64,000 nt of DNA from Candidatus Versatilivorator sp. (GCA_965207735.1 OZ242296.1:1504001-1568000); one strand, 5' to 3'; numbered from the stretch's first letter, positions 12,930 to 37,832 are shown. Made by a program: numbers and translations. Notes: generated from the sequence alone by a model not told the origin.

Positions 12930-13465
12930 GGCCTTCCCGCCAGGGATCACTGTGGTGAGAGCGACCCCGGCAAGGGGGACAAGGGGTGTCCCGACCCCTG
13001 TCCCCCTTTGCCCTCCCCCGTGGCGCACCAGCGGCCAAAATGGGGGGGCGCTCCCTCCACTTCCTCCCCCTCCTGTGCGGCGCGACGACGCGCCGTGCGA
13101 GGGGGTGGACACGCGATGCCGACGCCCCACGGGGCTTTACCCCATAGGATTTGGGCAATCCGTGCCAACCCGCGTCCAATGCGGGTTTCCGGGAACATCC
13201 TGGACCACGACGGCGAGGGCTTCGTCCTCTGAGAGTGGAGCGTTGGGGTTGTTGAAGGGACGCGTCACTTCATGCGCCACCTACGCGCGCCACCTCCCTT
13301 CTGAAAGGGTGACACCCATACGACGCCACGTCCTTGACCCCCGGAGGCGGAAATCGTCGATCATTTCGCGGCTGTTGGAGGCCGGGATTTTCTGCTCCAT
13401 TGAACGATCTTCTCCATGACGACATCGAAGGCGCCGCGACGTGGGAAGGGTTTCCCAATCGTTAC
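12930..13465 (+). repeat. Conserved structured module, copy A
   Basis: Shares GGGATCA.TGTGG.GAGAGCGACC, TGGCGCACCAGCG, GACACGCGA, CCAC.ACGGCGAG, CTCTGAGAG, TTGACCCCC.GAG.CGGAAAT with copies B, C and E. Confidence 0.7.
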
Positions 13466-13481
13466 CACACCTGCCAGCATG

Positions 13482-14390
13482 TCATTCCATCTCCCATTCA
13501 ATCAACTCCGGGATCTTGTCGCGAACGGTGAGCGTTGTCCACATCGCCGAGTGATCGCTCCACCCATGTTTGCGCCATTCGTGGTAGTAGCCGCAGTCCA
13601 CGACCTCGAAGTGCCTTGAAACGAAAGTATGGTCGAAGCATCTCGGGTTCTTACGCGTGGTGTAGTGGGTGACGGGGGTGGCTGTCTCAAAGCCATGAAG
13701 GTCGCGATAAGCATTTCGCAGACCGTGCTGCGACGCCCCGGCCAGGACCGAACGTACACCATTGGCCCGCTCCATATTCCGGCGTCGGACTCCAAACTGG
13801 GTTTTCCAGCCCCGGATGGAGGTACCTCCATCCTCGTGAATTTTCTCTCCAAAAGGCACGATCTGCCCCGATTGTCGGAACCGCTTGGGCTCGTTGAAGT
13901 CTCCCGTCAGGATGCGGGGCGAGTCGAGCGCACGGCGTAGCGTTGCCGACAGCACGGTGAAGGTGTCGATCTTCCGCCAGCCATTACCGGAGCCGTTGGG
14001 GATGTGCGCGGTGAACACGTCGATATCCTGCTCGTCGGGCAGGGAGACCGTGGCACGCGCCAGCAACTCCGGATAAGGTGCGCGACGGCGCCAACGATTG
14101 CCGCTAGCTTTCATCGGCCAGCGACTCGCAATCAGGCACTGGTAGATTTTTCGCTTCAACCTGCGGATTGGCGGTAATTTCCGCATTGCCGTGGGTGGGG
14201 CCTTCTTGCCGCTCCAGTGGGCGTGGACAAGGCCGATGTCGGCGAGACGCAGCGCCAAATCGTCCGCCAGGGTCGTCTTTACCTCCTGCAACGTCACGAC
14301 GTCCGGTCTTGCGGACCGGATCGCCTCGACGATGTTATCGAGTTGACCGGACAGGGATTGAAAGTGGACGTTCCAGGATAAGATTAGCAT
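13482..14390 (-). CDS. Endonuclease/exonuclease/phosphatase (EEP) family protein
   Basis: SWNV, LQEV, H, GDFN, FDH, SDH motifs. Confidence 0.85.
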   Translation of the reverse strand: MLILSWNVHFQSLSGQLDNIVEAIRSARPDVVTLQEVKTTLADDLALRLADIGLVHAHWSGKKAPPTAMRKLPPIRRLKRKIYQCLIASRWPMKASGNRWRRRAPYPELLARATVSLPDEQDIDVFTAHIPNGSGNGWRKIDTFTVLSATLRRALDSPRILTGDFNEPKRFRQSGQIVPFGEKIHEDGGTSIRGWKTQFGVRRRNMERANGVRSVLAGASQHGLRNAYRDLHGFETATPVTHYTTRKNPRCFDHTFVSRHFEVVDCGYYHEWRKHGWSDHSAMWTTLTVRDKIPELIEWEME

Positions 14391-14656
14391 GGGATGTTTC
14401 CTGAGTAGAGGCGGCGTAGACGATCAATGCTGCTCACTGTTTCATTAGGCACCGCCTAAATCCGTGAGCCTGACCGGTTCGGCTGGGTTTACTTGACCTC
14501 CAACGTACCGTAGCACCCCAAGAAACCGTCACAGCCCCATTTCTCTCTCAGAGGCAAGCCTCGCGGCCTGTGGGCAGCGTGAACCACGTGAACCCTTCTG
14601 CATCGACCACGAACCTCAAATAGACTCAGTTCGCCGACCGGTCAATGTGTCCACGT

Positions 14657-15520
14657 CTATAGGTAATTCTTTCTGAATCGGGCCTTGACTTCTTCTGCCT
14701 CGACAATCTGCTTCACTTCCGAAAAAGATTCGGCAAGGTCGTCAACTCCCTTTATATTTTTCCTAGCTTCGATGATGAACTCCTGTTCCAGTACCTCAAT
14801 TAAAGCCTTGAATCCGGCGAATTCCATTCGCCGGATTTGTTCCCAGATTTCCTTAGGAAGGATTCCACCGACTATGCCCTTCAGATGCAAGTCTCGTTTC
14901 CAGCTCACGCTCTCACCGAATTCCATTCCTTTACTCATCAAGAATCCGAGCCTGCCGTAGGTGCTGATCAATCCATTGTATATCTTCCACAGCCTTCCAC
15001 TCACAAAGATCCTCGTCTCATCGAGTTGGGTGGGTTTAGTGCCCACTCCGAAAACGATTTCCATGCCAGCGCAAACCTTCTCGTCCTTTGGCGTTATCTT
15101 TTCCGCCACTCTCTGAAACGAGGAATACTCATTGAGAATGCTGCGGATTTTTTCATTCGAGTCATGGGGGCTACTGATGACAGATTCAAACTCGGTTTCT
15201 GTGAGTAAAGCTTCGACGGCTACAAGCGGTGCAAATTCTTTCTTAACACGCAAAATGTCCTGCCAAAGATTGTTGATCGATTCAATAGTCTTGATTCGAT
15301 AGCTATCACCAATGCGACTTGCTATCTGCAGTGAGTTGACTAACTCCGTAGATTGCAACTCAAGCTTGGCTTCGAGATGTTTAATCTCTTGGTTTTGCGA
15401 ATGTTCCAGTCGCTTGATAGCAACGTCCATCAGTTTCGGGAGGAGTAATTTGAATGTGGCCAATAGACTAAGAACTACTGCTATTGTGCCAGCGACGAGG
15501 CCTTGTAGCGTATCAAGCAT
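14657..15520 (-). CDS. Hypothetical protein with N-terminal TM helix and coiled coil
   Basis: Long low-GC ORF; hydrophobic GLVAGTIAVVLSLLATF. Confidence 0.6.
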   Translation of the reverse strand: MLDTLQGLVAGTIAVVLSLLATFKLLLPKLMDVAIKRLEHSQNQEIKHLEAKLELQSTELVNSLQIASRIGDSYRIKTIESINNLWQDILRVKKEFAPLVAVEALLTETEFESVISSPHDSNEKIRSILNEYSSFQRVAEKITPKDEKVCAGMEIVFGVGTKPTQLDETRIFVSGRLWKIYNGLISTYGRLGFLMSKGMEFGESVSWKRDLHLKGIVGGILPKEIWEQIRRMEFAGFKALIEVLEQEFIIEARKNIKGVDDLAESFSEVKQIVEAEEVKARFRKNYL

Positions 15521-15681
15521 TGAATCATTGCCTTCCAGATAGATTCCTGACAGCCTATCCGGGAAACGTCCTAGTAGCTTGTTAGATACTTCCCTGTGGT
15601 TGATACACGGCGCCTGCGCACTCTCATCGCGCAACAAATTGTCCCGTCAGGGGGGGTGGGCATAGCCTTGTCGTCCAAGGC

Positions 15682-16893
15682 TCAGAAGGGAATATCCTCG
15701 TCTGACGGCGAGTCCGGCTTCGAATCTTCCGGCACGGAATTTGGCATCGAGAATATCGTGTTGTATTCCTCAATTGCCTTACGCGCGCGTTGCTCAATTG
15801 CGCCGCCATGGTCCAAATCTTGGAGGTACCTGAAGCCATCCTCTTCGCTGTTGCACCGCTGATTGATCAGTGGCCATTCAGCGGCATCGGTATTGTCGAC
15901 TTGCCGCCATGGCGAGAACACGCAGGCGCGATGCTGACCCGCTGACTTTCCAACCCAGCGCGTGACACTCCAACCATTTACTTCAGTTGTATACCTCCAG
16001 CCGTTTCCCGAATTGGCTTTTTTGAACCTCTTACGATAGCTCTCCACGTTTCTTGCAACTACTTGAACACTGGGCGGTTTGCTCGACGTTTGGGATCGAG
16101 CATCTTCCAACTGCTTTCGTGCCTCCTCCTCTGAAGACTTGAGCTGATGTCTTACTTCCTCCAATTCTCCCTCAATGTGCCTACGTGCCTCCTGTTCGTC
16201 CTGTAGCGCTTGTTGGGTCTCGTCGTACTTTTCCTTCAGCTCCTGAAGAACCCCCTCAGTCTTATGTTTATCTTTCTCTGCTTTAGATTTGAGCCAATTT
16301 GCATCTTGCAACTCTTTTTGGGTATTTCTGTGTTCATCTTTTTCCGTCTCCAGCTTAATCTTGAAATCATCTGCCTTGGCGACGATTTGTTTGGTTTCCT
16401 CGTGCTTTGCCTGTTCATTCTCCAACTCTCGCTTCATATCTTGTAGATCACGGTACAGCTTTCTCACGTTTTTTTCAGCCTCCAGATCAAACAGGTGCAA
16501 CACGCGTGCACAGGTGTCCAAAGCACGGTCCGTGTCCCGATCGCTGAAATCATCTGTCGTCGGATGTGCCCAATCGTTGCGCCAATCGCTGATCTCGTAC
16601 ATCCACGTTACGGCTTTGGACCTTTCGCGCTTCTTGCCGGCGAGATAAGAAGGGAACACGTTTTTGTTATTGCGGATGACATCAGGAAAGTCACTGATAT
16701 CGACGCTATCGATCATGTTTTCGCTTAGGTCTTCTGCAATCTTTTCCTGTCGCCATGGTGAAAGAGCGGGCACAACGAGGCCAGTGAACCAGTCACCCGA
16801 TTCCCAATGTTGCATTGTCTGCGCGATGTACATTCGCATTGCACTGCGATAGATGTCTATTCCCTCACCCAAGCGCCTGCGGTTTTCGTTCAT
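15682..16893 (-). CDS. Swt1-like HEPN protein with coiled coil and unknown C-terminal domain
   Basis: SD AGGAGG; RNDWAH (RxxxxH) followed by FSDRDTDRALDT; long heptad region. Confidence 0.7.
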   Translation of the reverse strand: MNENRRRLGEGIDIYRSAMRMYIAQTMQHWESGDWFTGLVVPALSPWRQEKIAEDLSENMIDSVDISDFPDVIRNNKNVFPSYLAGKKRERSKAVTWMYEISDWRNDWAHPTTDDFSDRDTDRALDTCARVLHLFDLEAEKNVRKLYRDLQDMKRELENEQAKHEETKQIVAKADDFKIKLETEKDEHRNTQKELQDANWLKSKAEKDKHKTEGVLQELKEKYDETQQALQDEQEARRHIEGELEEVRHQLKSSEEEARKQLEDARSQTSSKPPSVQVVARNVESYRKRFKKANSGNGWRYTTEVNGWSVTRWVGKSAGQHRACVFSPWRQVDNTDAAEWPLINQRCNSEEDGFRYLQDLDHGGAIEQRARKAIEEYNTIFSMPNSVPEDSKPDSPSDEDIPF

Positions 16894-17499
16894 ATCCGCC
16901 AACCTCCTTCTTTTTCAGCTTTTTCAGCTTCTTAAGTCCCCGATGCGTCAACCGGTGCTGTAGCGGGAAGCGAGCGCCAGGGTCGGGCTGCCGGTCACCA
17001 ACTGCAGAATGGAGCCGTGCTGCCGGTGCTGCTCCACGAGCAGGTTAGGCAACGATCCGTGCTGGAATGGATATCCATCTGCAAACCCCAACAAGATGAC
17101 ACAACCCTTTCCCAGGACTCCCTTGGTTATCCTGACACCCCCTGAATCTCTGAGCTGTGCCGGGTACGATGAGTTTTCTCGGTCTCTGGCATACCAGAGC
17201 ACCCCGAAACTGCCACAGCGCCGATTTCCCTCTCAGAAGGCCCAGCTCTTGCCCGTGTGGCGAACCAGAGATTTTGAGGCTAATCCCCGGGAAAAAAGGC
17301 CCCTATTTGCCCTGCGCTGCGTTTTCCATGGGTCCGATGAACGTTAGTACCCGGGATTTTGATGGTAGGTGGGTCAGCAGCAGCCTAGAAAGTATAATAG
17401 GATCTGTGTGAGTGTGGGGTGAATGGAAAGAATATATTGGTGAGAATTTGATGAGTTTATTCGGCGCCCAGCAACGCGCAACGGCAAGATCCACGGGCC

Positions 17500-17700
17500 T
17501 CTTTACTCTTAGAGCTCCCGGTCCTCCCCGACCCTTGGGATGGGTAGCGCACCCACTCGTCCATCAGGATACGCCGATGTTCAAACTGGTCGGAGCGGTC
17601 AAAGCCTGCCTCGACCCGGTTCCGAACCACATGCGCCAGGGCCGACTCCATCACCTCCCGGGGATGGCGGTCTCCTCAGCCGCCCAGTCCCGGAAGCTGG
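17500..17700 (-). pseudogene. 3' fragment of the P4-type integrase
   Basis: SFRDWAAEE...ALAHVVRNRVEA...RSD.FE.RR, frameshifted. Confidence 0.85.
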
Positions 17701-18221
17701 TCCGTCTTCAGCCATTCGGGAATACTGGTCACGGTCCTGTTCCCCGCAGACGCTGGGATGAATCGGAGCAACAAACAGCCGCACTCGATGACCGTGGAAT
17801 GATCGACGATGTCCGCCTCTGGGGGTCAAGGCGGTGTAGACAGACCAACGCGCCACCAAAAAAACCCCGGTGGCGCGTCTAGGTGGCGCGTGCTTTCAAC
17901 AACCACAACGCTTGTCTCTCAGAGGGGGGCGCGCTCGCCGTTGTGGTTAAGGACTTTCTGCGAACGCCGCATAGGACGCGGGATGAGACGGATTGCCCTC
18001 CCCCAATTGTGACAAGGCGAAGCGAGGCTGCGGCTCGCGTGTTCCCCTCCCGTCCGGCGGAACGGCGCGCAGTACGAGAGGGGTGCAGGTGGAGGGAGCG
18101 ACCCCCCGATTTTTAGCGCTGGTGCGCCACCGGCGAGGGTTACGCGGCGCGTACAGTGGCGCGCGATTAACCCTCTCCTCGTGGGGGTCGCTCCCTCCAC
18201 ATTGATCCCTGCGGGAAGGCC
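17701..18221 (-). repeat. Conserved structured module, copy B
   Basis: Reverse-orientation homologue of copies A and C; closest to E. Confidence 0.75.
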
Positions 18222-18279
18222 GAATTGGTAGGACCCGGACTCAGGTTGTCCTGCGTAGCCTGGCTTTGGCTGCTGCCGA

Positions 18280-18377
18280 GCTTCGAGCCTCCGGTTCGGG
18301 CAAGACAACGCCTTGCGCTGAAACCAGCCGCTTGAGTATGGTGAGTCCTATGTGTCCGAGAAATCAGGGGCTGTACA
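18280..18377 (+). mobile_element. IS3/IS481-like right-end remnant
   Basis: Homologous to 20690-20919 (reverse) and 22828-22945; ends TGTCCGAGAAATCAGGGGCTGTACA. Confidence 0.6.
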
Positions 18378-18464: not shown

Positions 18465-19391
18465 TTATTTGCTTGGCTTCCTGTTTGTGATTTGTTCTAG
18501 GCGACGCATCAGCTTCTGCTTCAAGTCTGTTAAATTGCTGTATTCGGGACAATTGTAAGCCGCAAGATCAAAGTGCAATCGGGTGTCATTGCATCTAAAC
18601 AAAATCACCTTTCGCTTAAGTGAGTGTGCATACCCAACTTCGTAGTAGACGCTTGGTCGTTCACCCGTCAAGTCCGCAATTAGAAACTCCGATGATTCGA
18701 TCTTTTCTGTTATCTTTTTGGTGATTATGTCCTCATGTTGTATGTCGTCGGCTCGAACAGCCTCTATCCCAAACTGGGCGAAACATTCTTTAATCGTGTT
18801 GTACCGATCCTCCAGTGCCGGATTTTGAGGGTCGATCTGCATCATGACAAACGCAGAATCTGGTTTGTACTCAGCAGTGGCCTGCGGATTCGAGCTGAAC
18901 TCGTCCGTTGACAGGCTTTGGGAGATCTCGAGAAGATCCACGAATCTTGTCAAATTTGAAATATCCCGTTCGAATCTGTTACGAGCTGAGCACGGGTGGG
19001 CTGGATCAGCTTCGGACTGCCCAGCTTGTTGTATCCCATAAACGACTCCTTCGTCGTGCAGCAACTCTGCATCCCACGAGCGATAACTTGTCAAGTGAAG
19101 AGATGCTCGCAGGGATTTTGTCCAAGTTCCCAAGTCTCTCCTGTCCGCTTCGGTGAGCAGCGTTGACTGTTTTATGCAATTGGCTATTGGCCTTACAATC
19201 TCTATCACTTCAGTTTGAAGATTGGTGGAATCCTGCCGTTGCGTCTCGTCCAACTTAGACCAGTATTTGTCAGCTTGGCCGTACTCGTAGTTTTCGAGTG
19301 GAGCTTCGAAATAGTCAATGGCGGCAAAAAACTCTAGGCCTTTAGTTTTCAGTTGCTCAATTTGTATTCGTATTTTGGCGAAGTCTGGCAT
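18465..19391 (-). CDS. Protein with C-terminal nucleoside-deoxyribosyltransferase-like domain
   Basis: AFVMM...RADD...IADLTGERPSVYYEVGYAH; start placed at MPDFAK. Confidence 0.7.
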   Translation of the reverse strand: MPDFAKIRIQIEQLKTKGLEFFAAIDYFEAPLENYEYGQADKYWSKLDETQRQDSTNLQTEVIEIVRPIANCIKQSTLLTEADRRDLGTWTKSLRASLHLTSYRSWDAELLHDEGVVYGIQQAGQSEADPAHPCSARNRFERDISNLTRFVDLLEISQSLSTDEFSSNPQATAEYKPDSAFVMMQIDPQNPALEDRYNTIKECFAQFGIEAVRADDIQHEDIITKKITEKIESSEFLIADLTGERPSVYYEVGYAHSLKRKVILFRCNDTRLHFDLAAYNCPEYSNLTDLKQKLMRRLEQITNRKPSK

Positions 19392-19679
19392 CGCAATGTT
19401 TCCTTTTTCAGCTTGCTTAACATGGGACCTGCATCGTCCAACTTCACGTTGAGCCGACCCTAAACCTCCAGAATCGCTTAGGGGCACTATATCGGGTGTT
19501 GGGGGGGAGGGATAGGTGTTGGGGGTTAATTCACTTTCTAGGTCCGCCGAAGCTGCCGCGCCAGATTGGCCAGGGTGGCAATCAGACTGGGAATATCCTA
19601 CTCTGGGCATCGGGGCCGTAATTCCCCACTCGGAGCGTTGACCGAAGTCCTCCGACAGACTCACTCAATCGGCGATGGA

Positions 19680-20689: not shown

Positions 20690-20919
20690 TGTACCGCCCC
20701 CGATTTCTTGGACAGATAACACCCTCCAAACTCAAGCCGCCGGTTTTAGCGCAAGGCGTTGTCTTGCCTGAACCGGAGGCTCGAAGCCGAGACGCTCAAT
20801 CAACCAGTGCTGGTTGTAGAGCGAGCGAAACTCTTCCAGTGCCCCAACCAGTTCCGGTACCGACTGGAAGTGGCGTACCCACAGCAGTTGCTCCTTGACG
20901 GTTCTGAAGAAGCGTTCGG
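20690..20919 (-). pseudogene. IS3/IS481-like transposase 3' fragment with terminal IR
   Basis: ERFFRTVKEQLLWVRHF...YNQHWLIERLG; ends ...GGTACA. Confidence 0.75.
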
Positions 20920-21595
20920 TGACCTCCCCCCCATAAAACGGTCCACTTCGAGAGTGAGTTTTCCGGTACAACAAAGGAGGAGAACTCACCATGAAGCGGA
21001 AGTGATTCACTGAAGAACAGATCATCGGAATCCTGAAGGAAACCGAGGCAGGGGCGAAGAAGCAGGAGATCTGCCGGAGGCACGGGATCTCGGAACACAC
21101 CTTCTATCGATGGCGGTCCAAGTACGGCGGGATGGCGGTGTCAGAGGCGAGGAAGCTGAAGGGGCTCGAGGCTGAGAACCAGAAGCTGAAGCAGCTTTTG
21201 GCCGATGCCCATCTGGATAACGCGGCCCTGAAGGAACTGCTGTCAAAAAACTGGTAAGGCCCGCAGCACGCCGCCGAGCCGTGGACCACGTGATCGGGCT
21301 CGGGATGTTGAGTCAGCGGCGGGCCTGCCGACTCTCGGGAATCCACCGATCGGTGGCCCGTCATCAGTCTCAATGCGGAAGCGACAGCGAACTTCGAGAA
21401 CGCCTGAAGCAGTTGGCGGCCGAGTATCCGCGTTATGGATACGAGCTGCTGCACGGGATGTTGAAAGCTGAGGGGCTCGTGGTGAACGAGAAGAAGACGT
21501 ATCGCATCTACCGCGAAGAGAAGCTCCAGGTCAGGCGGAAACGACGCAAACGCCTATTGGCACGGGACCGGGTTCGAATGCCGATGCCAGAGGGG
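20920..21595 (+). mobile_element. Truncated IS3-family element (orfA with nonsense codon, partial orfB)
   Basis: TG start; MKRK*FTEEQIIGIL...TFYRWRSKYGG; AAAAAACTGGTAA frameshift site; RYGY HTH region of orfB. Confidence 0.85.
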
Positions 21596-21766
21596 ACGGA
21601 CCATCCCCGAGAGGTGATTGAGGCGGACTTGGCGCATGTGGTGCGCAACCGTGTCGAGGCGGCCTATGCCCGCTCCGACCTGTTCGAGCGCCGGCGCATG
21701 TTGATGGACGACTGGGCGCGTTACCTGGCCGAGGGGGCGGGGGAGGATCTGGAGCCCTTGGAGTAA
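21596..21766 (+). pseudogene. 3' fragment of the P4-type integrase
   Basis: DHPREVIEADLAHVVRNRVEAAYARSDLFERRR...EDLEPLE. Confidence 0.85.
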
Positions 21767-21909: not shown

Positions 21910-22280
21910 GGCCTTCCCGCAGGATCAATGTGGAGGGAGCGACCGAGAAAAGGGGGGTAAAGGTGTCCGGAGGCCTGTCCGGCTTTACACTTTCTCGTGC
22001 CGCTCCCTCCATCTGCACCCCTCTCCTGCGACGCGCCGTTACGCCGGGCGGGGAGGGGGACACGCGAGGCGCAGGATCACTTCGCTTTTTTTAACAGCAG
22101 ACGCGGAAAATCCGTGTTGTACCGCGTCTGATGCGGCGTTTCGGGGAAGCCTCCGACCACAACGGCGAGGACTCCGCCCTCTGAGAGAAGCGCGTCGGGG
22201 TTGTCGAAATCAGGTCCACCCCCCCGTCTGAAAGGTGGACACCCCTATGACGGCACGTGCTTGACCCCCGGAGGCGGAAA
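21910..22280 (+). repeat. Conserved structured module, copy C
   Basis: TGGAGGGAGCG/CGCTCCCTCCA stem; GTCCACC/GGTGGAC hairpin at 22214-22240. Confidence 0.75.
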
Positions 22281-22442: not shown

Positions 22443-23032
22443 CTCCTCTCCCGCTTCAGAACGCTGCCGACACCGCCGGCGCGGATACCAGGGAACGCCG
22501 GACGCGGGATTGCACGGAACTACCGCAGTCCGGACGGACGCTTTCGCACCGTTCCACAGAGCAACCACTAAATTCTCACCGGAAACAGCAAAACCATCAC
22601 ACCTTTCTCATAAACTCTTCTGCATAATGTAATCGTTCGCTCCTCGGGAACAGATCACGGATGCGGCCGGACAAGTGGCCTTGCGAGAAGGCTTGGGCTA
22701 GGTGGCTGAGCCTGGACGACGCGGCTGCCCTGGTTCCCGGCGTTCGGCTCGGAGGTCACGCAGAGGCGCGGAAATACGCCGGCCTCCGCCGAGGCCTGGG
22801 CAAGAGGCCGCCGGAACTGATTTCCGAAACCAATACTGGTTGATCGAGCGTTTGGCTTCGAGCCCCGGTTCAGGCGCGGCAACGCCCTAACCTGCAACCG
22901 GCCGCTTGAGTATGAAAAAATTTGTCTTTCCAAGAAATAAGGGACGCAAGAGAAGTCTGAAGGAACTCGTTCCGTTCCTCGCCAAATACCCCGAGTGTTG
23001 TCAAGTACCGTTTGAATTCAGGAGGTTGGGAC

Positions 23033-23782
23033 ATGTATGGGAAAGCACTGCTATTGGTAGTGACTGCCGCGTTACTGCAATCGCCAGCAGCAAATGCACA
23101 GAGTGACGATAGGTCGAAGTGGTCAATCAAGGACGTGCGCAAAGTCATCAAGGGGGCGTTTAGGTACGCGCCGAGTGGAGTTGTTTCTATCACGGAAGGT
23201 ACTCATCCCCGGCTGCACGCCATCTGGTTAACGGATGATGTGTGCTGGGCGATATCACGTATCGTGCAGCACGAGGAACGCAGAACCGATACAGAAACGA
23301 AAGAGATCTACGATGATTGCAGAGTAGATGCTGCAGAAAGTTATTCCATTTATGTGTCTGCGTATGAGGACGTTTATAGCAAAGTTCCCACGACGCGCGC
23401 TGAGCGGCAGAGACAACGAGACAATGGTACTTCAGAACAGCTTATTAGGCATTCGAAGATCGAACAAACATCATCTCATCCTGTCGCAGTAAACCAGAGG
23501 CTCGACCAAATATTCCTGCAACGCCGCGACAACCGTGATGTCTTCGTCAGGCCGACCAAAATCGACACGCCACAAGAGTACTTCTCGTATCTCCATGGCT
23601 ACTCCGCAGGTAAAAATTTCGATATCGAGAGAGACGTTATCATCACTTTTCCGCGCAGCCTTAAACTTGTGCAAGGCGCGAAGGATATTGATATTCAAAT
23701 GCGTCAGGGGAAAGGTCAACTCCGCTTGAAGTTCAAGCTAAAGAATCTACGAGCTAATAAAGGGAAGCTAGCAAATCTGTGA
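23033..23782 (+). CDS. Secreted hypothetical protein
   Basis: SD AGGAGG; signal peptide ending ANA-Q. Confidence 0.65.
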   Translation: MYGKALLLVVTAALLQSPAANAQSDDRSKWSIKDVRKVIKGAFRYAPSGVVSITEGTHPRLHAIWLTDDVCWAISRIVQHEERRTDTETKEIYDDCRVDAAESYSIYVSAYEDVYSKVPTTRAERQRQRDNGTSEQLIRHSKIEQTSSHPVAVNQRLDQIFLQRRDNRDVFVRPTKIDTPQEYFSYLHGYSAGKNFDIERDVIITFPRSLKLVQGAKDIDIQMRQGKGQLRLKFKLKNLRANKGKLANL

Positions 23783-27870: not shown

Positions 27871-28577
27871 CGCTCCAGAATCGTGCGAATCTGCGTTTCC
27901 GCGTTCGTCACGACGCGGAACAACACACGCCGGGACGCCTTTGGCTCTTCGCGGCCGGAGTAGTCCACAACAAGACGTGACGACGAGAAGCCGACCGCAG
28001 CGACCTTGCGCCTGACCCAGCTCCGATCACCGGGGGCCGTGGTAAGCGTGTAGATGTGCTCCAGAACCGATCGCGTGCGTCCTTGGGACAACCGCATGTT
28101 GTTGAAATACGCCTCGTCCTCGGTGGCCAACAACCAGTCGCTGGAGGTATGCCCTTCCACGCGCACCTCGTCGATGACCTCCTCGAACTCTCGTAGCACC
28201 CGCAGATACCTGGGGAAGAAATCGTCGAGGATAGCGGCGAACCGCGGCCGCAGGTTAATGGCGCCGGCTTCGAACAACACTTCTGGCGATCGGAACTCGA
28301 ATGTCAGGTTTTCTGCGTCTATCGCAGCGTCCCATTTCACCAGGTCGTTCTCGAACTCGCCGCGCAACGCCTCGTCGATGGCAACCTGCCCTTCCCGATA
28401 CGCCACCGCTACTTCGCGGATGCGATCCCGATCGAGGAACGCACTGCGCATCAGCGCGACGGAGATGAAGAGAAAAACCATCATCAGCCCCGCCATCAGG
28501 TCCGAGATGGTCAACCAGTGCTCGCCGTCGCCGCCGGACCGGCGCAATCCGAACAGATGGTCCGCCCCCGCTCTCAT
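27867..28577 (-). CDS. zorB: Zorya MotB/OmpA-like protein
   Basis: WLTISDLMAGLMMVFLFI TM with conserved Asp; VEGHTSSDW, NMRLSQGR, SRRV. Confidence 0.85.
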   Translation of the reverse strand: MRAGADHLFGLRRSGGDGEHWLTISDLMAGLMMVFLFISVALMRSAFLDRDRIREVAVAYREGQVAIDEALRGEFENDLVKWDAAIDAENLTFEFRSPEVLFEAGAINLRPRFAAILDDFFPRYLRVLREFEEVIDEVRVEGHTSSDWLLATEDEAYFNNMRLSQGRTRSVLEHIYTLTTAPGDRSWVRRKVAAVGFSSSRLVVDYSGREEPKASRRVLFRVVTNAETQIRTILER

Positions 28578-30022
28578 TGCCTGGTTCCCGTCCTGACAAT
28601 CTGCTTCATCTCCTGCACGAGCCTCCCATAGTCGTCGACGAACCTGCCAGCGATCTGGCCCAGCGCAACGCCCATCTGTTGCATCACGCGACTCATCTCC
28701 CTGGACAGCGCCTCGTCGAGTGCTTCGATTTGCTTGTTCAGGCCTTCACCGGTTCGCGAAACGGCCTGCCGCGTCTGATCGAGCGTCATCTGGATCAGGG
28801 TATCGGTCGCCTGACTCTGCGCGCTCGCCGCCTCCTTCAGTGCGGTTTCCATCCGACTCTGCATTTGCGTGATGGCGTTGGCCACGCGATCCTGTACCGC
28901 CTGGACATCGCCCTGCATCTTCTCCCCCGCCTGCGCCAGATGCTCCAGCATGTCCCGAGACTTCGCAAGCTGCGCTCTGGAGTCGTTCTGCAGCTGGGTG
29001 ACGTGCTCGCTGGCCAAGCGGACGGCTGCGGCGATGTCCTGCGTCATCGCATGCACATGCGCCTGGGCCTGCGGAATGGCTTCGACGGCGCGGTCACGCA
29101 GTTCCGCGAAGGCGGCGAGATGACGCTCGAGTTCCTCGATCCCGCGGCTGGCCGTGTTCACGACGTCGGTGAGCTTCTCCATCGAGTCTGGGATGCTCGC
29201 GCTACGCTCGGCGATCCGTGCCACGGATGCCTCAATCGTCGTGATCTGCCGCACCGACTGGTCGTACAACACGTGGAGCTGCTCAAGCTGCTCCCGATAC
29301 GCCTCCTGCCATTCCACGAGCTTCTGCACCGACTCGTCGAGCTTCCTGAAATTGTCGCCGAACTGCTCCGTCAAGTTACGGTTGAAGTCGACGATGACCG
29401 CTCTCAGCGCCTCGATCACCTGCTCCGTTGCGGACTTCGACAGCATCTCCGCGAACGTATGCAGACGTTCCCACAGCTTGGCCTCGAATCGCTCACGGAC
29501 TGCGGCGTCCTCCCGCCGCCGATCCCACAGATCCGCCCTCAACAGTTTCAGTTGCCCTGCCAGACTCGACTCCTCCCCGCCCGCGATGGCGTCCCGGGTC
29601 GCCTTGAGAAGGTCCTTCTGTTCGTTCAGTACGGCGACGACATCTTCCGGGCCGACTTCTGCCGCAACGGTCCCGGCGCCCTTTACCGTCAGAAAGGGCT
29701 CCATGCCTCTGAAGACGAGGCTCGCCGATATCCCGGCGATACTGCTGACAAACGCGGTTTTCAAACCCTGTAACAACCCTTCGATACTCTCGTCTAACCG
29801 TGCCGGATCGAAGTCTAGCAATCCGACCACGATCCCGACAAAGGTGCCCAGAATGCCCAGTGACGCAAGCAACGCCGGCGCGTGCGCTGTCAGCGTCGGA
29901 TACTTCCCTTTCCAAAGCGAGTATCCGGAGAAGACGAGCAGTACCAACACCAGCCATATGAAGATCTCTGTGACGACGCTCGGCGCAAGCCCGCGCAGGA
30001 ACGATTCAAGCACCGTACTCAT
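28574..30022 (-). CDS. zorA: Zorya MotA-like protein with long helical tail
   Basis: LGILGTFVGIVVGL, GLKTAFVSS, FNRNLTEQFGDNF..L..SV..LVEWQE.Y. Confidence 0.85.
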   Translation of the reverse strand: MSTVLESFLRGLAPSVVTEIFIWLVLVLLVFSGYSLWKGKYPTLTAHAPALLASLGILGTFVGIVVGLLDFDPARLDESIEGLLQGLKTAFVSSIAGISASLVFRGMEPFLTVKGAGTVAAEVGPEDVVAVLNEQKDLLKATRDAIAGGEESSLAGQLKLLRADLWDRRREDAAVRERFEAKLWERLHTFAEMLSKSATEQVIEALRAVIVDFNRNLTEQFGDNFRKLDESVQKLVEWQEAYREQLEQLHVLYDQSVRQITTIEASVARIAERSASIPDSMEKLTDVVNTASRGIEELERHLAAFAELRDRAVEAIPQAQAHVHAMTQDIAAAVRLASEHVTQLQNDSRAQLAKSRDMLEHLAQAGEKMQGDVQAVQDRVANAITQMQSRMETALKEAASAQSQATDTLIQMTLDQTRQAVSRTGEGLNKQIEALDEALSREMSRVMQQMGVALGQIAGRFVDDYGRLVQEMKQIVRTGTRQ

Positions 30023-30557
30023 CGCCGTGTAGCCCCTGATCGAAGTGATGCCGCAAAACGGTGAGTGCCATTCTATCGAACACGAACGGACATTGCGAGC
30101 CACGCGAACGTCCGCGCGTGCTCACCCGCATCAAGACGTTCCGCTCCCAGCGGCACCTCAACGTCGGCTCCTGGCTGCGCGACCTCATTAATGAGGCCAG
30201 TTGAAAGGCCAATAGATCCTCACCTTTGAACTGGACCCATTATCAGAGGGAAGACTGTCGAGTCGGCAGGAAACCGACTCGAAGAAAAGCAGACTGCAGA
30301 TGGCCCAGGTAGAGAGAGGGAAGCCTGGAGGATGCACGCAACCCGATACCTCCGATCGGGAGCACGGGCAGCTTGCCACTCCGCTCGACGGTTCCGGAAG
30401 AAGAGTCTCCGGAGTCGAACGATCGCAAGACTTGTCCGACAACGTCCCCGATGGTCCAGAGGATTCCTTTTCAAAAAGAGGGATACAATGAGGGAACTGC
30501 AACCGGCTTATCCATATTAAGCCGTTTATAATTAGTGATATACAATTCCTACATTGA

Positions 30558-31629
30558 ACGTCGCCGTGAGCTCGTCGGCAGCCTTGCCCTGGTCCCCCTG
30601 GCAGAGGCTAGGGAGAAAGCGCTGTCCAACCGCAAGCTCGCCCGTGAGGGTGGAGATCCCCTTGCCGAGAAACGCCGCACCGAGGGCATCCCCACCTTCG
30701 CCGAAGCTGCCTCGCGTGTGCTGGAACAGAAGCGGGACGGCTGGCGCGGCCGGCGTCACCACCGCGAGTGGATGGTGAGCCTGAGGCGGTACGCCTTCCC
30801 GCGCATCGGCAAGATGCCGGTCTCCGAGGTCACCAGCGCCAATCTGCTTGAGATCCTCACCCCCATCTGGCACCGGAAGGCCTCCAGCGCCCGGCGGGTG
30901 CGCCAGCGCCTGCGTACGGTCCTGGAATGGGCCGTAGCCATGGAGTACAGAATCGACAACCCCTGCGACAGGATCGGCCCGATCCTGGGTCCCCAGCATG
31001 ACGTTACCGAGCACATGCGGGCTTTGCCCCATGGGGAGGTGGCTGCGGCCATCCGGACGGTGCAGGCAGCGACGGCGCCCGAGGTGGCCAAGCTGGCTTT
31101 CGAGTACCTGGTGCTGACCGCGGCCAGGTGGAGTGAGGTGCGCTGGGCCGAGTGGGAGGAGATCGATCGAGACGCTGGTGTATGGACCGTCCCGGCCAGC
31201 CGAATGAAGGCGAACCGCCAACACCGGGTGCCGCTTTGTGGCCGCGCCCTGGAGATTCTCGAGGCGGCAGGGACCCTGGGCGAGGGAGCCGGTCCTCTGG
31301 TATTCACCCGTGGGCAAGGGAAGCCGCTCAGTGACAAGGAGCTGCGCTGCCTGGTCCGCGAGCAGGGGATTGCAGCGGTGCCGCACGGGTTCAGGTCCAG
31401 CTTCCGGGACTGGGCGGCCGAAGAGACCGACCATTCCCGGGAGGTGATCGAGGCGGCCCTGGCGCATGTGGTCCGCAACCGGGTCGAGGCGGCCTATGCC
31501 CGCTCCGACCTGTTCGAGCGCCGGCGTGTCCTGATGGACGACTGGGCGCGTTACCTGGCCAGACTTGATCCCCTCCGGCACCAGAGGTCGCAACTGCGCC
31601 AACATGTCCGGCTCCACTTCCGACAATGA
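30558..31629 (+). pseudogene. 5'-truncated second copy of the P4-type integrase
   Basis: Near-identical to 37917-39149 from RRREL onward; most of the arm-binding domain is missing. Confidence 0.85.
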
Positions 31630-32410: not shown

Positions 32411-32830
32411 TTACCTGCACTCGAGAAACTCCCGTATCCGCTCCCCTACATCAGTACCCGTCTTTACCTCGCACTCCCACAGAATCATTACTTTCCAGCC
32501 TAATTCATAGAGTTTTGCCACCTGTTCCGCGTCGCGGGTCACATTGCTTTTCAGCTTAGTTGCCCAGTAATTCAGGTTGGACCGGGGGGTTCGGGAATTC
32601 TTGCAGGTGGTTGAGGGGTGTTGATGCCAAAAACAGCCATGAACGAAGATAACCTTTTGCAGGCGCGGGAAGACAAGGTCGGGTTTGCCCGGCAAGTCCA
32701 TCCGGTGCAGCCGATAGCGGTAGCCCATCGAATGAACAAGGCGGCGCACCATCATCTCCGGCATCATTCCCTTGGACTTGATGTTGGACATGATTTCGCT
32801 ACGCCTCTTGGAACTTACTGTGTCGGCCAT
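32411..32830 (-). CDS. vsr: Very-short-patch repair endonuclease
   Basis: D...RS.IMS, LPGKPD, FVHGCFWH, ILWEC. Confidence 0.92.
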   Translation of the reverse strand: MADTVSSKRRSEIMSNIKSKGMMPEMMVRRLVHSMGYRYRLHRMDLPGKPDLVFPRLQKVIFVHGCFWHQHPSTTCKNSRTPRSNLNYWATKLKSNVTRDAEQVAKLYELGWKVMILWECEVKTGTDVGERIREFLECR

Positions 32831-33027
32831 CGCCTAAGCTCGGATAGGGTTTCGTCGATAAACCAATCAAGGAAGCGAAAACGTGGTTTTGAGAATCATC
32901 TCCTCAAGTTGGTCTGGTATGATTTGTCTCTTTTGGCTGTTATCTGTTAGAGACTTTACAGTTTGTGCAAATAGTGTCAGCAGGGTGCTGAGCATTGCGT
33001 CTCACTTCTACGAAAGCAAAAAACTCA

Positions 33028-34188
33028 ATGGAAAATCAATCTTCTGAAAGCACAATTGAGGGACGGCAGATCACGAGGATATCCCTGAACGAACTCTTGC
33101 TAGATCGTAACAACCCTAGATTTGGCCTACGGGGTAACGAAAAAAGCCAACAAGAAATTCTAGATCATATTGTAGAGAAATTTGGAGTAAACGACGTTCT
33201 GAGTTCACTGGCGGTGAATGGATATTTTGAGGCTGAGCCCATTGTCTGTCGCCGGATCCCCAAAACAAAAAGGGCTGTTGTTGTTGAAGGCAACCGACGT
33301 CTAGCAGCTTGCCTAATTATTCTCGGAGACAAGAGAGCGGCAAGCCAAGAGAAACGGTCGGCGGAATTTAGCGCTCTCTGGAATGAGAATAACCGCCCAA
33401 GGATCAACCCGGTACCGGCAATATTGTTCGAGGAGAAGGAACAGCAGAAAGCAATTCTTTCCTATCTGGGTGTGCGCCACATCGCGTCCTCACAGCCATG
33501 GGATTCGTATGCGAAGGCCGCTTGGGTTGCTCAGGTAGTCGAAGAAAGTGGTCTGGACATCCAGAGTGTTTCTCAGATGATCGGTGACCAGCACCAAACG
33601 GTGAACCGGCTTTTAGAGGGTTACTATTTGGTTCAACAATTGGTTCGGCAGGGCAGGTTTCATCCACAAAACAGTATTCGACGAGGCCGTGGAAGTGTTA
33701 CGGAATACCCGTTCTCATGGGTTTACACCATACTTGGCTATACGACAGTTCGTAAGTTTCTCGAGCTCTCTGATGGGGGTGCCCCACAAAATCCGGTCGC
33801 CGAAGACAAGTTGGACGGAGGCGGGTTGCTTTTTCGAGTTATGTTCGGCGACAAGTCGCGTGGCAGAAGTGCTGCTTTAGAAGATTCCCGTGAACTTGGC
33901 GACCTAGCAACTGCCCTTGCCAGTGATGAAAAGATTCGTCTTTTGGAACAGGGGAAGACGCTTGCTGAAATTGAAACTCTTACTAAGCCAGTCGAAAGGC
34001 GCCTGTCTGACGGACTTGACCTTGTGCGCGTCACGTTGAGGGATTTAGTTGCCAGTTTGTCTGAACAAGATATTCAGCAGAGCACTGCAACTAATTTCGT
34101 GAAGATTTCTAGCGGTAATCGCAAGATGGCCGTGGAACTCGATAGAAAGCTCAAGGAGATTGCATTTGGTGGGGATGACGAAGACTGA
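33028..34188 (+). CDS. ParB/Srx-like N-terminal domain protein
   Basis: LLLDRNNPRF and VVEGNRRLAA motifs; W..YAKA helix region. Confidence 0.75.
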   Translation: MENQSSESTIEGRQITRISLNELLLDRNNPRFGLRGNEKSQQEILDHIVEKFGVNDVLSSLAVNGYFEAEPIVCRRIPKTKRAVVVEGNRRLAACLIILGDKRAASQEKRSAEFSALWNENNRPRINPVPAILFEEKEQQKAILSYLGVRHIASSQPWDSYAKAAWVAQVVEESGLDIQSVSQMIGDQHQTVNRLLEGYYLVQQLVRQGRFHPQNSIRRGRGSVTEYPFSWVYTILGYTTVRKFLELSDGGAPQNPVAEDKLDGGGLLFRVMFGDKSRGRSAALEDSRELGDLATALASDEKIRLLEQGKTLAEIETLTKPVERRLSDGLDLVRVTLRDLVASLSEQDIQQSTATNFVKISSGNRKMAVELDRKLKEIAFGGDDED

Positions 34189-35155
34189 CCCATATAGCCT
34201 TCGCCACCAAGCCCAGCGCTCGGCCAACCATGCCGATCAAGCCGAATTCTCTGCGCTAAAGAACGGTACAACGGTCATTGATACTGGAATTTATCATGGG
34301 CGTGTTGCAGGCGCGATGGACGATTTTGAAGCCCCAGATCTGGCTGTCCGCGAGTTATGGCATAACGAAGATCTAAAATTCGACAGCGCAGTAGGGAAGA
34401 TATACGAGGAGATCGAGCGTCGCAGCAAGACCATGGAAACAACTTATCCGTTTTCAATTGAAGAAGGATCATTAATTCACACACCAAGCAACAACTCAGT
34501 TTACGAATTTCTTTTGGCTATCTGTAATGCAGAGACTCTCACGGCGGGTGAACATGTATGGCTTCCCCGCTTGTTTGAGCGTCTTTCTGCTCGTTTGGTC
34601 GCAGCTTGTTTCGGCTCTGACACGCAATTTGTGCATACTGGAGCACCCAGAGATCCAGAAATCGGCACCTCCTTTAAGACAGCAATGCTGACTGTTGCTG
34701 AACGAACGTCGGAGTGGAACTGGGGCCCAGACGAGGGTCTGCCGGATGAGCCTGTCAACGGCGATGGTGGCTGCGATTTCGTTGTTTGGCCCGTTCCCCC
34801 AGACGGACGAAAGATAGGCCAGCTTTTCGTGCTCGGTCAGTGTGCTTGCGGTAACGATTGGCAAACGAAATTCAAGGATCTAACAATCAGGAGTCTATCT
34901 AAGTGGTTCAATCCACTATCGATTGTCGAACCAGTTCGATGTTTCTCAACCCCGTTCCATGTTACCGACGCAATGCTAAGAGAGGCGAGCCGTGAAGGGG
35001 GAATTGTCTTTGATCGCGCACGACTGGTTAGACTTAGCCGGCAAGTGGCAGAAGATAGGATTGAATCCGAAATTCAAAGCAAAATGAATCGTCTTATTGA
35101 ATTAGTGATCGGACAGCGCTACCAAATATCAGGAAGCGACTCTGCAACGGCCTGA
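34175..35155 (+). CDS. Putative PD-(D/E)xK-like endonuclease
   Basis: FE.LS...GDGGCDFVVW...LGQCACG..W..K; overlaps the ParB-like gene. Confidence 0.55.
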   Translation: MTKTDPYSLRHQAQRSANHADQAEFSALKNGTTVIDTGIYHGRVAGAMDDFEAPDLAVRELWHNEDLKFDSAVGKIYEEIERRSKTMETTYPFSIEEGSLIHTPSNNSVYEFLLAICNAETLTAGEHVWLPRLFERLSARLVAACFGSDTQFVHTGAPRDPEIGTSFKTAMLTVAERTSEWNWGPDEGLPDEPVNGDGGCDFVVWPVPPDGRKIGQLFVLGQCACGNDWQTKFKDLTIRSLSKWFNPLSIVEPVRCFSTPFHVTDAMLREASREGGIVFDRARLVRLSRQVAEDRIESEIQSKMNRLIELVIGQRYQISGSDSATA

Positions 35156-36072
35156 AATAATTGGGGAGGCACTGCATTTCCTATAGCTTCGTATTTCTGG
35201 CGCATCGTTCCGGTCTCAGGAAAGACTATATCGCTATCGAAGCCTTGCAGACACGCAGCCTCACGAAAAGAGAAACGTCTTCGAGGAGCATCTGACGACC
35301 AAACCCATTTATCAGTGTGGATGCGTAATAACTGGGGACTCAGTGGATGTAAAGGCATGTGTCGAGGATGGCTAACGATCGTCTTGCTCGGCTCTGACCA
35401 GTCGCGGCGCCTATTACGTGACATATAGTACCAATGGAATCCATCATCGAAGAATTCACCTTCTGGCCAAATTGTCATGCCAGCCAATGCTTCTGCAATT
35501 GTCTTAAATCTATTCTCCCCTTCTCGAGTGTGGGTCGGCTTTGGAAAGGAATAGCGCATGTCGATATCGCTCCTAATTCCAACGACAAATATTCTGACTC
35601 GTTCTTGGGCTACTCCGTAGCTAACCGCATTCAATAGATCATGTGACACCCTATATCCGGCCATCCGGAAACGAGTGATTTGATTGTGCAGGAGGTGTCT
35701 GAAATCACTACGCCGCATGCCCGGCACATTCTCGACTATGAATGCTTTCGGGCGTACCTGCCTGAGCGCACGATCAAATTCACGATATAAGTAGTTAATT
35801 CTTCTATTTGATACTCGGGCGCCCCCTTGGCTGAAGCCTTGGCAAGGGTAACATCCAACTAAAAGATCTGCCGTAGGGAATGACGGGATTTCGCCAACGT
35901 CTTTGCACTGAAAATCTGTTTCCGGCAAATTGGCTTCGTAGAGTTCTTTGGCAAACTGTGAAATATCGTTGGCGAATACAACTTCGAAGCCGGCACTCAG
36001 TAAGCCCGTATCAGAGCCGCCGCACCCGCTAAACAAGGAGACGGCTTTTGCTTTTGTCTTAGTTTTCAGCAA
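35119..36072 (-). CDS. C5-cytosine DNA methyltransferase
   Basis: FSGCGG, PCQGFS, ENV, QxRxR, GNAVPP. Confidence 0.92.
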   Translation of the reverse strand: MLKTKTKAKAVSLFSGCGGSDTGLLSAGFEVVFANDISQFAKELYEANLPETDFQCKDVGEIPSFPTADLLVGCYPCQGFSQGGARVSNRRINYLYREFDRALRQVRPKAFIVENVPGMRRSDFRHLLHNQITRFRMAGYRVSHDLLNAVSYGVAQERVRIFVVGIRSDIDMRYSFPKPTHTREGENRFKTIAEALAGMTIWPEGEFFDDGFHWYYMSRNRRRDWSEPSKTIVSHPRHMPLHPLSPQLLRIHTDKWVWSSDAPRRRFSFREAACLQGFDSDIVFPETGTMRQKYEAIGNAVPPQLFQAVAESLPDIW

Positions 36073-36957
36073 CTCAGCAACTCTTATCTTGTTGTATTCT
36101 CTTTGAGAATCACCTTCTGATGGTCCTATCTTGAAGGTCCACCCCTCCTCTCCTCTGATAGTATCTCAATCACTGCAACAAATCATGGGGATAAAGAGCC
36201 GGGCTCGGGAAGAGCCGTTCTCTCATCGACCCAGGAAAATTCTCCGAGTTCCCCCTTTTCCACAGCCTCGACGGCGGGGCAACGGCGGGGATAATTCACC
36301 AAATTCCTCCCTCTGGCGTCGGACCTAAATTCGGAGGAGGGTCAATGCGCAAAGCGAATGCGCGCACATGGGAAGGACGCGGGATGCGCAGATCGGAGCA
36401 TCACCGACCCGACAGTGATCCATTCGACTGCAAGGCTCGGGGCGTGGTCTGCGGCCCCGTGGTTCCAATTCGATCCGGGCCAACCGTAACTGTTCGGTCA
36501 AGCCGTGGCGCGCGTCGTCCTGCGCCGGGCCTATGGCTTCGCGCTCAATGGCGACCGAGCACCTGACGAAGTGCCACCCTTTCACCTCCGTGGGATGGAG
36601 ACACAGAGCCGAGAAGCGACCCGTGGTTGTCGGAACGATACGGTCGGAGCGCGTGGTAGGTAAGGACTTCGAGGCTGACGATCCTCTGCCGTTGTCCTGT
36701 CCGCGGGAGGTCTTGCCGCCGCTACGGCTGGCTCAAGCCCTACAGTAACCCAACGGGAATTGATCGCTACGGAGAGGATGCCGGTTCGACCACTCCACCA
36801 CAGCTTGACCGAACAGTTACGGGCCAACCGTCCCTAAACGGCCACGAAGAGCCAGGGGAATCCGTTTTTTTCTGGAGGGCATAATGGTGGGCAGGACATC
36901 GTCTGGAAATCCATAAGTCCTTTGTATAAAATGTGTTACATCAATTCCCGATAACGT

Positions 36958-37095
36958 CCGAAGGGATCACTGTGGTGAGAGCGACCCTCCGAGGGGAGGT
37001 TAACCGTGAACTGCGGGGTGAAACGGCTAACCCTCCCCGATGGCGCACCAGCGTCCAAAAGGGTGGGGTCGCTCTCACCACAGTGATCCCTTCGG
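36958..37095. repeat. 138-bp element with perfect 30-bp inverted arms (module copy D)
   Basis: CCGAAGGGATCACTGTGGTGAGAGCGACCC at 36958-36987 and its exact reverse complement at 37066-37095. Confidence 0.85.
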
Positions 37096-37244
37096 GAAGG
37101 GCGAAATGAAGACCTGGAGCCAAGTCATTCTCGTCAACCTGGCCTTGACGGCCGTGGGCCTTCGGGTGTGGCTCGATCCCTGGCCCGCTTTGGGAGAAGT
37201 TCCCCTGCTTGACTTGGTTCACGCCACCGATCCCTTGGGCCTAA

Positions 37245-37312
37245 CTACACTCAGACCTCCAGATCCTCTCCCGGCCCTTGGTCCAGGTAACGCGCCCAGT
37301 CCCGGAAGCTGG
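37245..37312 (-). pseudogene. Internally deleted integrase 3' fragment
   Basis: SFRDW fused to ARYL via GACTGGGCG microhomology. Confidence 0.7.
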
Positions 37313-37832
37313 TCCGTCTGCAACCATTCGGGAATAGTAATCACAGTCCAGTTCCCCGCAGACGCGTGGGAATCCGAGCAAGAAACAGGCTCACCGGATG
37401 ATGGTGGAATGATCGACGATTTCCGTCTCTGGGGGTCAAGGCGGTGTCGTCAGATGGGCCGACACCTTTCCGAAGGGGGGGTGTCGGACTAACATGTCGG
37501 AGATCCTGCTACGCACAACGTCTTTCTCTCAGAGGGCGCGCGCTCGCCGTTGTGGTTCGGGACTTTCCCGAAACGCCTCATCAGACGCGGAACAACACGG
37601 ATTTCCCGCGTCCGCTGCGAAAAGGCGAAGCGAGGCTGCGCCTCGCGTGTCCCCCCCTCGCCCGGCGAAACGGCGCGCCGCACGAGAGGGGTGCTGGTGG
37701 AGAGAGCGCCCCCCCCTTTTTTCCCGCTGGTGCGCCACGGGCGCGGGAAAAGGTGTCGGCAAAGGTGTCGGCCCTTTGCCCCCCTTTTGGGGAGGTCGCT
37801 CTCTCAACAGTGATCCCTGAGGGAGGGCCGAA
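37313..37832 (-). repeat. Conserved structured module, copy E
   Basis: Homologous to B over its full length, including the integrase junction. Confidence 0.75.

Follow-up and report, generated by a model that had tools for sequence, protein, structure and literature searches.

In the 64,000-nt stretch of Candidatus Versatilivorator sp. analysed here (GCA_965207735.1 OZ242296.1:1504001-1568000; the window, from a host genome of 5.26 Mb), a defence island carries several copies of a non-coding DNA module. These copies match the site between two genes, one encoding a 315-amino-acid (aa) protein that we call P315 and the other a VirD4-like protein, in a widespread family of ICEs (integrative and conjugative elements). 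We consider that this site is probably the ICE family's transfer origin (oriT), and that variants of it, distinguished by short sequence words, would allow islands with only an integrase to be mobilised in trans.

The parent site and its genomic distribution

An earlier note on this DNA had described a repeated structured module with copy-specific motifs. The module is real, the copies in the window aligning at 66-76%, and the motifs quoted are present in the copies named: AAAGGTGTCGGC in copy E at 37749 and 37761, TGTCCGG in copy C at 21964 and 21976, and the paired motifs GTCCACC/GGTGGAC of copy C (22214/22234), CCGACACC/GGTGTCGG of copy E (37459/37480) and ACGCGCCACC/GGTGGCGCGT of copy B (17848/17869). 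The five island copies that it counted are likewise genuine, but they belong to a genome-wide family with 46 full-length members, and their borders have had to be redrawn (Table 1). A profile built from 42 seed copies finds 84 matches in the genome and none in the reversed genome; module DNA is matched in all 13 of 13 same-genus genomes, with weak matches in 2 of 27 others. The statement that the copies share no conserved reading frame is true of the core, but not of the edges, which are coding remnants. In copies A, B and E the terminal ∼100 nt derive, on the opposite strand, from the 3′ end of the P315 gene, and the 5′ flank of copies C, D and E corresponds to the beginning of the VirD4 gene. 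Over the 46 genome copies the P315 tail is kept in 40 and the VirD4 head in five, the VirD4 start being undetectable at the other 41. Clustering of open reading frames (ORFs) around the copies chained into noise and gave no usable groups.

The source copy lies at genome 1855051-1855478, inside the one complete ICE found in the genome. This ICE carries an integrase, AlpA, a Toprim/AAA_25 primase-helicase and VirB2/3/4/9/10/6/8, and then P315, the module, a 679-aa VirD4-like protein (matching TraG-D_C and TrwB_AAD_bind, and NF045973 weakly), VirB11, a RepB primase, ArdC, a Replic_Relax-like protein (RR), whose gene is single-copy in the genome, and HicAB. The module shares sequence with the 3′ end of the P315 gene and stops six bases short of the VirD4 start, and the layout of the island modules matches that of the resident ICE's. 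A 669-aa protein of the ICE, encoded between integrase and AlpA (L012:4390-6399), is without a Pfam or NCBIfam match and has a 53% paralogue at genome 2143084-2144190.

The same gene order is conserved well beyond this genome. Among the best 80 of 569 confirmed P315 loci in genomes, 50 have the order VirB8-P315-VirD4, which places the module beside coupling-protein and relaxosome genes, as for an oriT; 18 are integrase-P315 units, seven have VirB8 only and five are of other types. Where VirB8-P315-VirD4 loci have full 10-kb flanks (n=41), RR is found in 32, ArdC in 32 and VirB4 in 31, compared with three each for the primase-helicase and RepB. From these neighbour counts, the module goes with DNA transfer genes rather than with replication genes. 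In 10 loci AlpA lies 49-111 nt from VirB2 with no helicase gene between, and whole-genome searches of five such genomes found no full primase-helicase orthologue, only zinc-finger scraps. The order P315-module-VirD4 recurs in records from Acidobacteriota and Gemmatimonadota, and a shorter module of the same plan occurs in records with Longimicrobiales, Bryobacterales and Terriglobia in their titles. For the neighbouring protein, the nearest records with a name carry the titles Ca. Versatilivorator or Acidobacteriota. At a metagenome locus with only 29% identity (L194) the arms and words are the same, and RR is directly upstream of P315. A small gene between module and VirD4 at this locus (L194:4900-5650) looks ribbon-helix-helix-like by eye.

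The host genome also has a second pore cluster, from which P315, module and VirD4 are missing as one block. In this VirB cluster (C1:2777874-2789174) VirB8 abuts VirB11, and RR is missing too. It is a pore without a DNA-processing cassette, either a decayed ICE or a protein-secretion system.

Module architecture and a proposed word-helix code

Read in its own orientation, the module has a 5′ mini-hairpin (TCCC-GNA or GNNA-GGGA). Next come the 14-bp arms of an outer inverted repeat, ∼84 nt apart, which surround a stem with the copy-specific, six-base word twice in its loop. Beyond this first stem lie a series of small hairpins, the direct words (two or three), a C-run and a single inverted word, before the ∼100 nt that belong to the opposite-strand gene. 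Inverted repeats and putative sites for an element-encoded protein, both expected of an oriT, are present, binding being suggested by the co-variation described below. The distance from first stem to distal word is 114-118 nt in 42 of 56 modules and 217-222 nt in 12, a step between lineages of about ten helical turns of DNA. The G-N(-N)-A loop of the 5′ mini-hairpin is kept in 75 of 85 genus modules and in 57 of 64 from other lineages, with all four bases at N and with a change of stem. GNA triloops are reported to be the only ones from which the very stable DNA mini-hairpin arises, the RNA counterpart being much weaker (PMC13037366). The GNA mini-hairpin and the fixed spacing suggest that the module acts as DNA rather than as RNA, and its features point to a site that would serve in two forms, duplex and folded single strand, in the manner of an oriT.

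P315 is a protein without named relatives in the collections searched. It has no match in Pfam (26 members compared with PF13814), NCBIfam, PDB sequences, plasmids or 50,697 phage records; the ESM Atlas lists only unnamed clusters for it, Foldseek returned no match at E≤0.001 for the P315 or RR models, and the system as a whole has no sequence match among PLSDB plasmids. The P315 model (predicted local distance difference test score 93, from 102 sequences) has a MarR-like winged helix (Z 6.9, root-mean-square deviation 3.3, 76 residues aligned), and its predicted recognition helix, residues 49-61, is hypervariable in the alignment.

This hypervariable helix changes together with the word. From 120 loci comprising P315 and its downstream DNA, the distal word was parsed in 56, leaving 46 after dereplication. 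Where backbones are at least 80% identical, pairs with similar helices have the word in common in 12 of 17 cases and those with different helices in 0 of 65; at 65-80% identity the figures are 11 of 20 and 2 of 143, giving 23 of 37 against 2 of 208 for all pairs at 65% or above, although the pairs are not independent, so that such counts overstate certainty. Within clades the helix-word correlation is 0.65, compared with 0.14 when permuted (p 5e-4) and 0.22 for the backbone. Sister proteins switch both together, as with TDRKQALR/TGCCAC and THRKRAER/TGTCAC, or VWRSGAQR/TGGTAC and TYRKHAYR/TGTCCC, and identical helix-word pairs recur on separate branches, against the backbone tree. Since ∼800 nt, in which the backbone is encoded, separate the helix from the module, simple linkage would be a poor explanation. 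The co-variation suggests that P315 reads the words as double-stranded DNA.

Nicking, and alternative roles for the module

If the module is an oriT, which protein cuts it? We take RR to be the probable nickase, with P315 reading the words. RR also has a winged helix (Z 11.4 to MarR-like chains), so that this fold is present in both proteins alongside a VirD4-type coupling protein, as in MOBC systems, but in RR the helix is conserved, and 30 homologues share the invariant residues H175-D176, P250-D251, E269, Y275 and K283. The RR nuclease domain was not ranked in fold searches made with the whole model. CONJscan treats PF13814 as MobC (PMC5357655).

The oriT interpretation would be retained if P315 itself were the relaxase, a divergent MOBC-type enzyme that both binds the words and cuts, leaving RR some other job. 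We think this unlikely, but it is the strongest of the alternatives. TraX of pAD1 has an N-terminal winged helix, and the direct repeats to which it binds lie 70-120 bp from nic (PMC12857230), an arrangement close to that of the module; P315 is always found next to the module and VirD4, has conserved D116, E130 and K166, and bears a weak fold likeness to the restriction nucleases BspD6I, PfoI and FokI (E 0.07-0.25) and SdaI (Z 5.8). In its favour too, the integrase-P315 units (18 of the 80 loci) and the AlpA-P315-VirD4 units (L149-L151) have no RR within the DNA examined. Against it, no invariant PD...(D/E)xK core runs through the 102 P315 homologues, whereas RR has one. None of the 26 members compared matches PF13814, and a P315-RR profile comparison aligns the winged helix only (probability 7%).

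A replication origin is a further candidate, a winged-helix protein with phased direct repeats being the usual plan of an initiator and its iterons. The module would then be an IncQ- or P4-like origin for excised elements and satellites, with P315 as initiator. The Toprim/AAA_25 primase-helicase and RepB primase of the genome's ICE recall RSF1010 (PMC8567376), and the genus version of the module, ∼103 nt longer, has extra hairpins. The middle hairpins show an excess of G-T pairs on one strand (41 compared with 6, and 18 compared with 1), but this shrinks to 24 against 14 distinct events after dereplication, which leaves an ssi priming site as a lead and no more; by eye, the module shows no ssiA-like GTG layout. 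The earlier note had offered replication origin, oriT and packaging site as options. Of these, oriT is favoured, and an origin is weakened by the rarity of primase-helicase and RepB at parent loci (3 of 41 each, against 31-32 for conjugation genes), by the five whole genomes in which no full primase-helicase was found, and by the failure to find a D5/P4 primase family in the host genome. The composition of the module, with a mean GC content of 66% and a lowest 30-nt window averaging 47%, provides no AT-rich melting stretch; the second pore cluster lacks P315, module and VirD4 as a block, and 46 active chromosomal origins would be costly. All of this makes an origin improbable. Packaging has no support, the parent being a conjugative element and P315 matchless in the phage records.

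Somewhat less probable still is that the module is only a promoter or operator of the VirD4 operon, controlled by P315, with the island copies as passengers in recombination debris. Its position directly upstream of VirD4 and the MarR-like fold of P315 would suit such a role, and the copies are often chimeric and flanked by integrase scraps. It is hard, however, to reconcile with the 41 of 46 whole copies that are without a detectable VirD4 start, with retention of the module in gene-less 2-kb elements, or with conservation of the DNA mini-hairpin and long cruciform arms across phyla, and no sigma-70-like site was found inside copy E.

The structured RNA also raised in the earlier note is very unlikely. 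Folding is certainly strong and the outer arms show two compensatory positions, but both strands of copy E fold alike relative to shuffles (z -5.0 and -4.4), RNAalifold on 85 copies found little beyond the outer stem, and the word-bearing stems have no G-U strand bias (outer 4 versus 8 cells, distal 0 versus 2). Rfam gives no match on the module at either threshold, lineage spacing differs by about ten DNA turns, the GNA triloops are characteristic of DNA, and the words track a DNA-binding helix.

Several observations nevertheless weigh against the module being an oriT read by P315 and nicked by RR. RR matches PF13814 at sub-threshold level only, and in no more than 5 of 30 members (best E 2e-4); it has no NCBIfam relaxase match, and lies 5-10 kb from the module in most loci. 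The genome's own ICE does encode the primase-helicase and the RepB primase. As for the word-helix code, 64 of the 120 loci, the genome's own ICE among them, were dropped as no word could be parsed, and three words were shifted one base by hand. Below 65% backbone identity the same word is found in 0 of 11 similar-helix pairs and 15 of 779 different-helix pairs; the peak that an unbiased window scan gives at the helix is modest (r 0.21-0.25, compared with 0.196 for the best non-helix window), and loci L111 and L119 are exceptions to the match. In many module copies the loop and distal words disagree, and copies C, D and E show signs of damage; on this account some of the hoard may be debris of tandem accretion. 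A linkage scan for a recombination hot spot at nic was uninformative, dipping at every conserved block and localising no crossover point.

The island, its putative helpers and known systems

The island occupies 26,712 nt between ends at 12571-12579 and 39301-39309, inside a dispersed repeat resembling repetitive extragenic palindromes (REP-like). In 11 of 12 relatives' loci examined the flanking genes are directly joined, giving the empty site; the remaining locus stops at a contig edge. The same ends recur genome-wide, with 16 left ends, 14 right ends and 49 intact targets. The island has an integrase but no relaxase or mating-pore genes, only remnants of P315 and VirD4, and its cargo consists of a type II Zorya system, a C5 methylase accompanied by Vsr, and three further proteins, of the HEPN, effector-like and low-density lipoprotein (LDL)-receptor repeat types. 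The earlier description of a cis element of non-autonomous P4-like elements, with specificity words, that travels with defence cargo is borne out by these ends, integrase and cargo. The island is a nest of element remains, as detailed in Table 1.

Table 1. Features of the island and its borders (window coordinates)
Feature	Position	Strand
REP-like dispersed repeat, left half; insertion target, contains Rfam Acido-Lenti-1 motif	12447-12579	
Left attachment core GGCGGCGAC	12571-12579	+
Conserved left end of element family, likely integrase arm sites	12580-12913	+
Module copy A, chimeric	12930-13371	+
Copy A mini-hairpin	12935-12947	
Copy A arms	12952-12965/13047-13060	
Copy A words: loop TGTCC(C/G); distal (T/C)GCGCC	distal 13273-13292	
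P315 C-terminus remnant, overlaps copy A	13293-13400	-
Cargo: exo/endonuclease-phosphatase, unknown ORF, Swt1-like HEPN protein	13482-16902	-
Integrase 3′ remnant	17495-17703	-
P315 C-terminus remnant, overlaps copy B	17748-17870	+
Module copy B	17792-18221	-
Copy B intact GCA mini-hairpin	18205-18216	
Copy B arms, perfect	18187-18200/18089-18102	
Copy B word CGCGCC, in loop and distal cluster	distal 17849-17890	
Cargo: nucleotide-signal effector-like protein (PADLOC Effector, E 1.6e-10)	18465-19664	-
Integrase 3′ remnant	21590-21766	+
VirD4 remnant, first 44 codons	21775-21906	-
Module copy C, word TGTCC(G/A), likely decayed; 27 nt deleted from first stem, mini-hairpin altered	21910-22280	+
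Cargo: LDL-receptor class B repeat protein (eukaryote-like repeats)	23779-26253	+
P315 gene fragment, residues 53-111	26647-26823	-
Cargo: Zorya type II (zorA2, zorB2, zorE)	26998-30103	-
Nested element remains	30147-31575	
Internal element end	30147-30532	-
5′-truncated integrase	30559-31575	+
Cargo: Vsr, ParB-like and unknown ORFs, C5 cytosine methylase	32411-36072	
End of second integrase family, 82% to genome 639198-639345	36826-36973	+
Copy D, partial: no more than the first stem, with doubled arms and word TGAAAC; a module start on either side, in opposite orientation	36958-37100	
VirD4 remnant, first 44 codons	37106-37237	+
P315 C-terminus remnant, overlaps copy E	37379-37474	+
Module copy E; mini-hairpin loop TCA, not GNA	37405-37829	-
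Copy E word CCGACA, twice in loop, also in distal palindrome	37753-37771; 37459-37487	
Short VirD4 5′ remnant between copy E and integrase stop	37833-37895	+
Intact P4-like tyrosine integrase, 410 aa	37917-39149	-
Right attachment core GGCGGCGGC	39301-39309	+
REP-like repeat, further copy; Rfam Acido-Lenti-1 match 39385-39430	39356-39506	

The Rfam 'Acido-Lenti-1 RNA' matches of the window (12447-12579, 39356-39506 and 8672-8717) all sit in the REP-like repeat that is the integrase target, and this family may represent repetitive DNA instead of a gene for an RNA. Three copies of an apparent IS3-family 3′ end lie at 18280-18377, 20690-20787 and 22855-22946, with IS3-like remnants at 20732-21766. 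A transposase region at 50965-51930 has more than 40 near-identical genome copies and a diverged piece at 26421-26652, and at 54453-56563 a sterol-reductase-like (ERG4/ERG24) gene adjoins a DUF1295 gene, in a bacterium. Elsewhere, another island has a 4845-aa ORF with a module fragment on each side (L015:4380-18917), and a 1486-aa reverse-transcriptase-domain protein is island cargo beside module copies (L018:9464-13924).

Which helper would a given copy address? The word of four intact mini elements, each comprising integrase and P315, is carried by 26 of 45 scored module copies, the ICE's word by two. Copies A and B look intact, and their words match resident mini-element P315s, not the ICE's; for the words of copies C, D and E no resident reader was found in the genome. 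Four other elements, of 2.05-2.4 kb and 91-97% alike, have an internally deleted integrase and different targets, and keep the module with different words. The ends of four elements of a second integrase family (67% identity; C1:636624, 1014107, 1124401 and 2498744) lie in the 5′ mini-hairpin of the module. Further integrases, at 80% identity, have other attachment cores and other dispersed repeats, and several are accompanied by an intact P315 gene (C1:1019484, 2008856, 2491820, 4568720, 5012044 and 5052591).

On the oriT interpretation the island would be excised as a circle by its own integrase, and a matching P315 would bind the word and act as address reader. RR would nick in the constant 5′ part, at the mini-hairpin or the outer arms, VirD4 and the VirB pore would export the excised circle, and the island integrase would insert it into a REP-like repeat of the recipient. 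The small integrase-P315-module elements would supply their own reader, so that the resident ICE machinery could move the majority word type of the genome. With several word versions on one island, islands could hitch rides on different helper elements.

Our literature searches turned up no published description of this system, but parts of it have close parallels. The oriT subtypes and mimics of the pWBG749 family in S. aureus, read by SmpO, similarly combine a constant core with repeats and a variable six-base site at two places; there too specificity is set by a small accessory protein and switches against the backbone tree, and several subtypes accumulate on non-conjugative elements (PMC8136818). 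The reader here, however, is a 315-aa winged-helix protein with a second domain, and not of the ribbon-helix-helix type described for pWBG749. There are more than 12 words, compared with the five subtypes reported there, on chromosomal integrative elements rather than plasmids, and the system spans phyla. The oriT of Enterococcus pAD1 and its MOBC protein TraX share with this system a winged helix, a protein with restriction-nuclease-like features, direct repeats some way from the presumed nic region and an adjacent coupling gene (PMC12857230), whereas here these features are split, with the variable helix in P315 and the invariant, putatively catalytic motif in RR, and the words also occur inverted and within the first stem.

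In their gene content the islands resemble iOriTs (10.64898/2026.01.13.699239) and MGIVflInd1/MGIVchHai6 (PMC5704250), which have integrase and oriT but no relaxase or pore, carry defence cargo and outnumber their helpers; some islands of this type encode their own relaxosome factor, MobI, much as the mini elements here encode P315. They differ in that each island here has several differently addressed copies, with dozens per genome, and in a target that is a dispersed REP-like repeat, not a gene end. The main text of the iOriT preprint does not contain 'Acidobact', although its supplements could list further oriT families (10.64898/2026.01.13.699239). The IME_oriT elements of streptococci, as described, have an integrase family whose insertions fall in the best-conserved part of oriT, at nic, like those of the second integrase family here (PMC7563843, PMC5704250), but they encode their own MobT relaxase, and their proteins and hosts are unrelated.

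The logic of oriT mimics with an accessory specificity factor is already known from Staphylococcus and Vibrio; what is new is the family to which P315 belongs, how many addresses and copies there are, and the REP-like target. A broader picture, which we regard as possible rather than probable, is that Acidobacteriota and Gemmatimonadota share a conjugation network in which an undescribed family of winged-helix adaptors gives one conserved MOBC-like nuclease more than 12 switchable DNA addresses through a helix-to-6-mer code. Mini elements might then re-address the resident ICE towards the word type that they carry, islands might hoard addresses for helpers not yet met, and of the integrase families one might spread via REP-like repeats while another parasitises oriT.

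Finding origins of transfer is difficult, and beyond model pathogens few are known; for uncultured Acidobacteriota and Gemmatimonadota the module provides a precisely located candidate. The helix-word pairs that occur in nature offer a test set for DNA recognition by winged helices, and the helix of a P315 protein could predict which islands a helper moves. An oriT of this kind would also explain how defence genes and eukaryote-like-repeat cargo could circulate on islands that have no transfer genes of their own.

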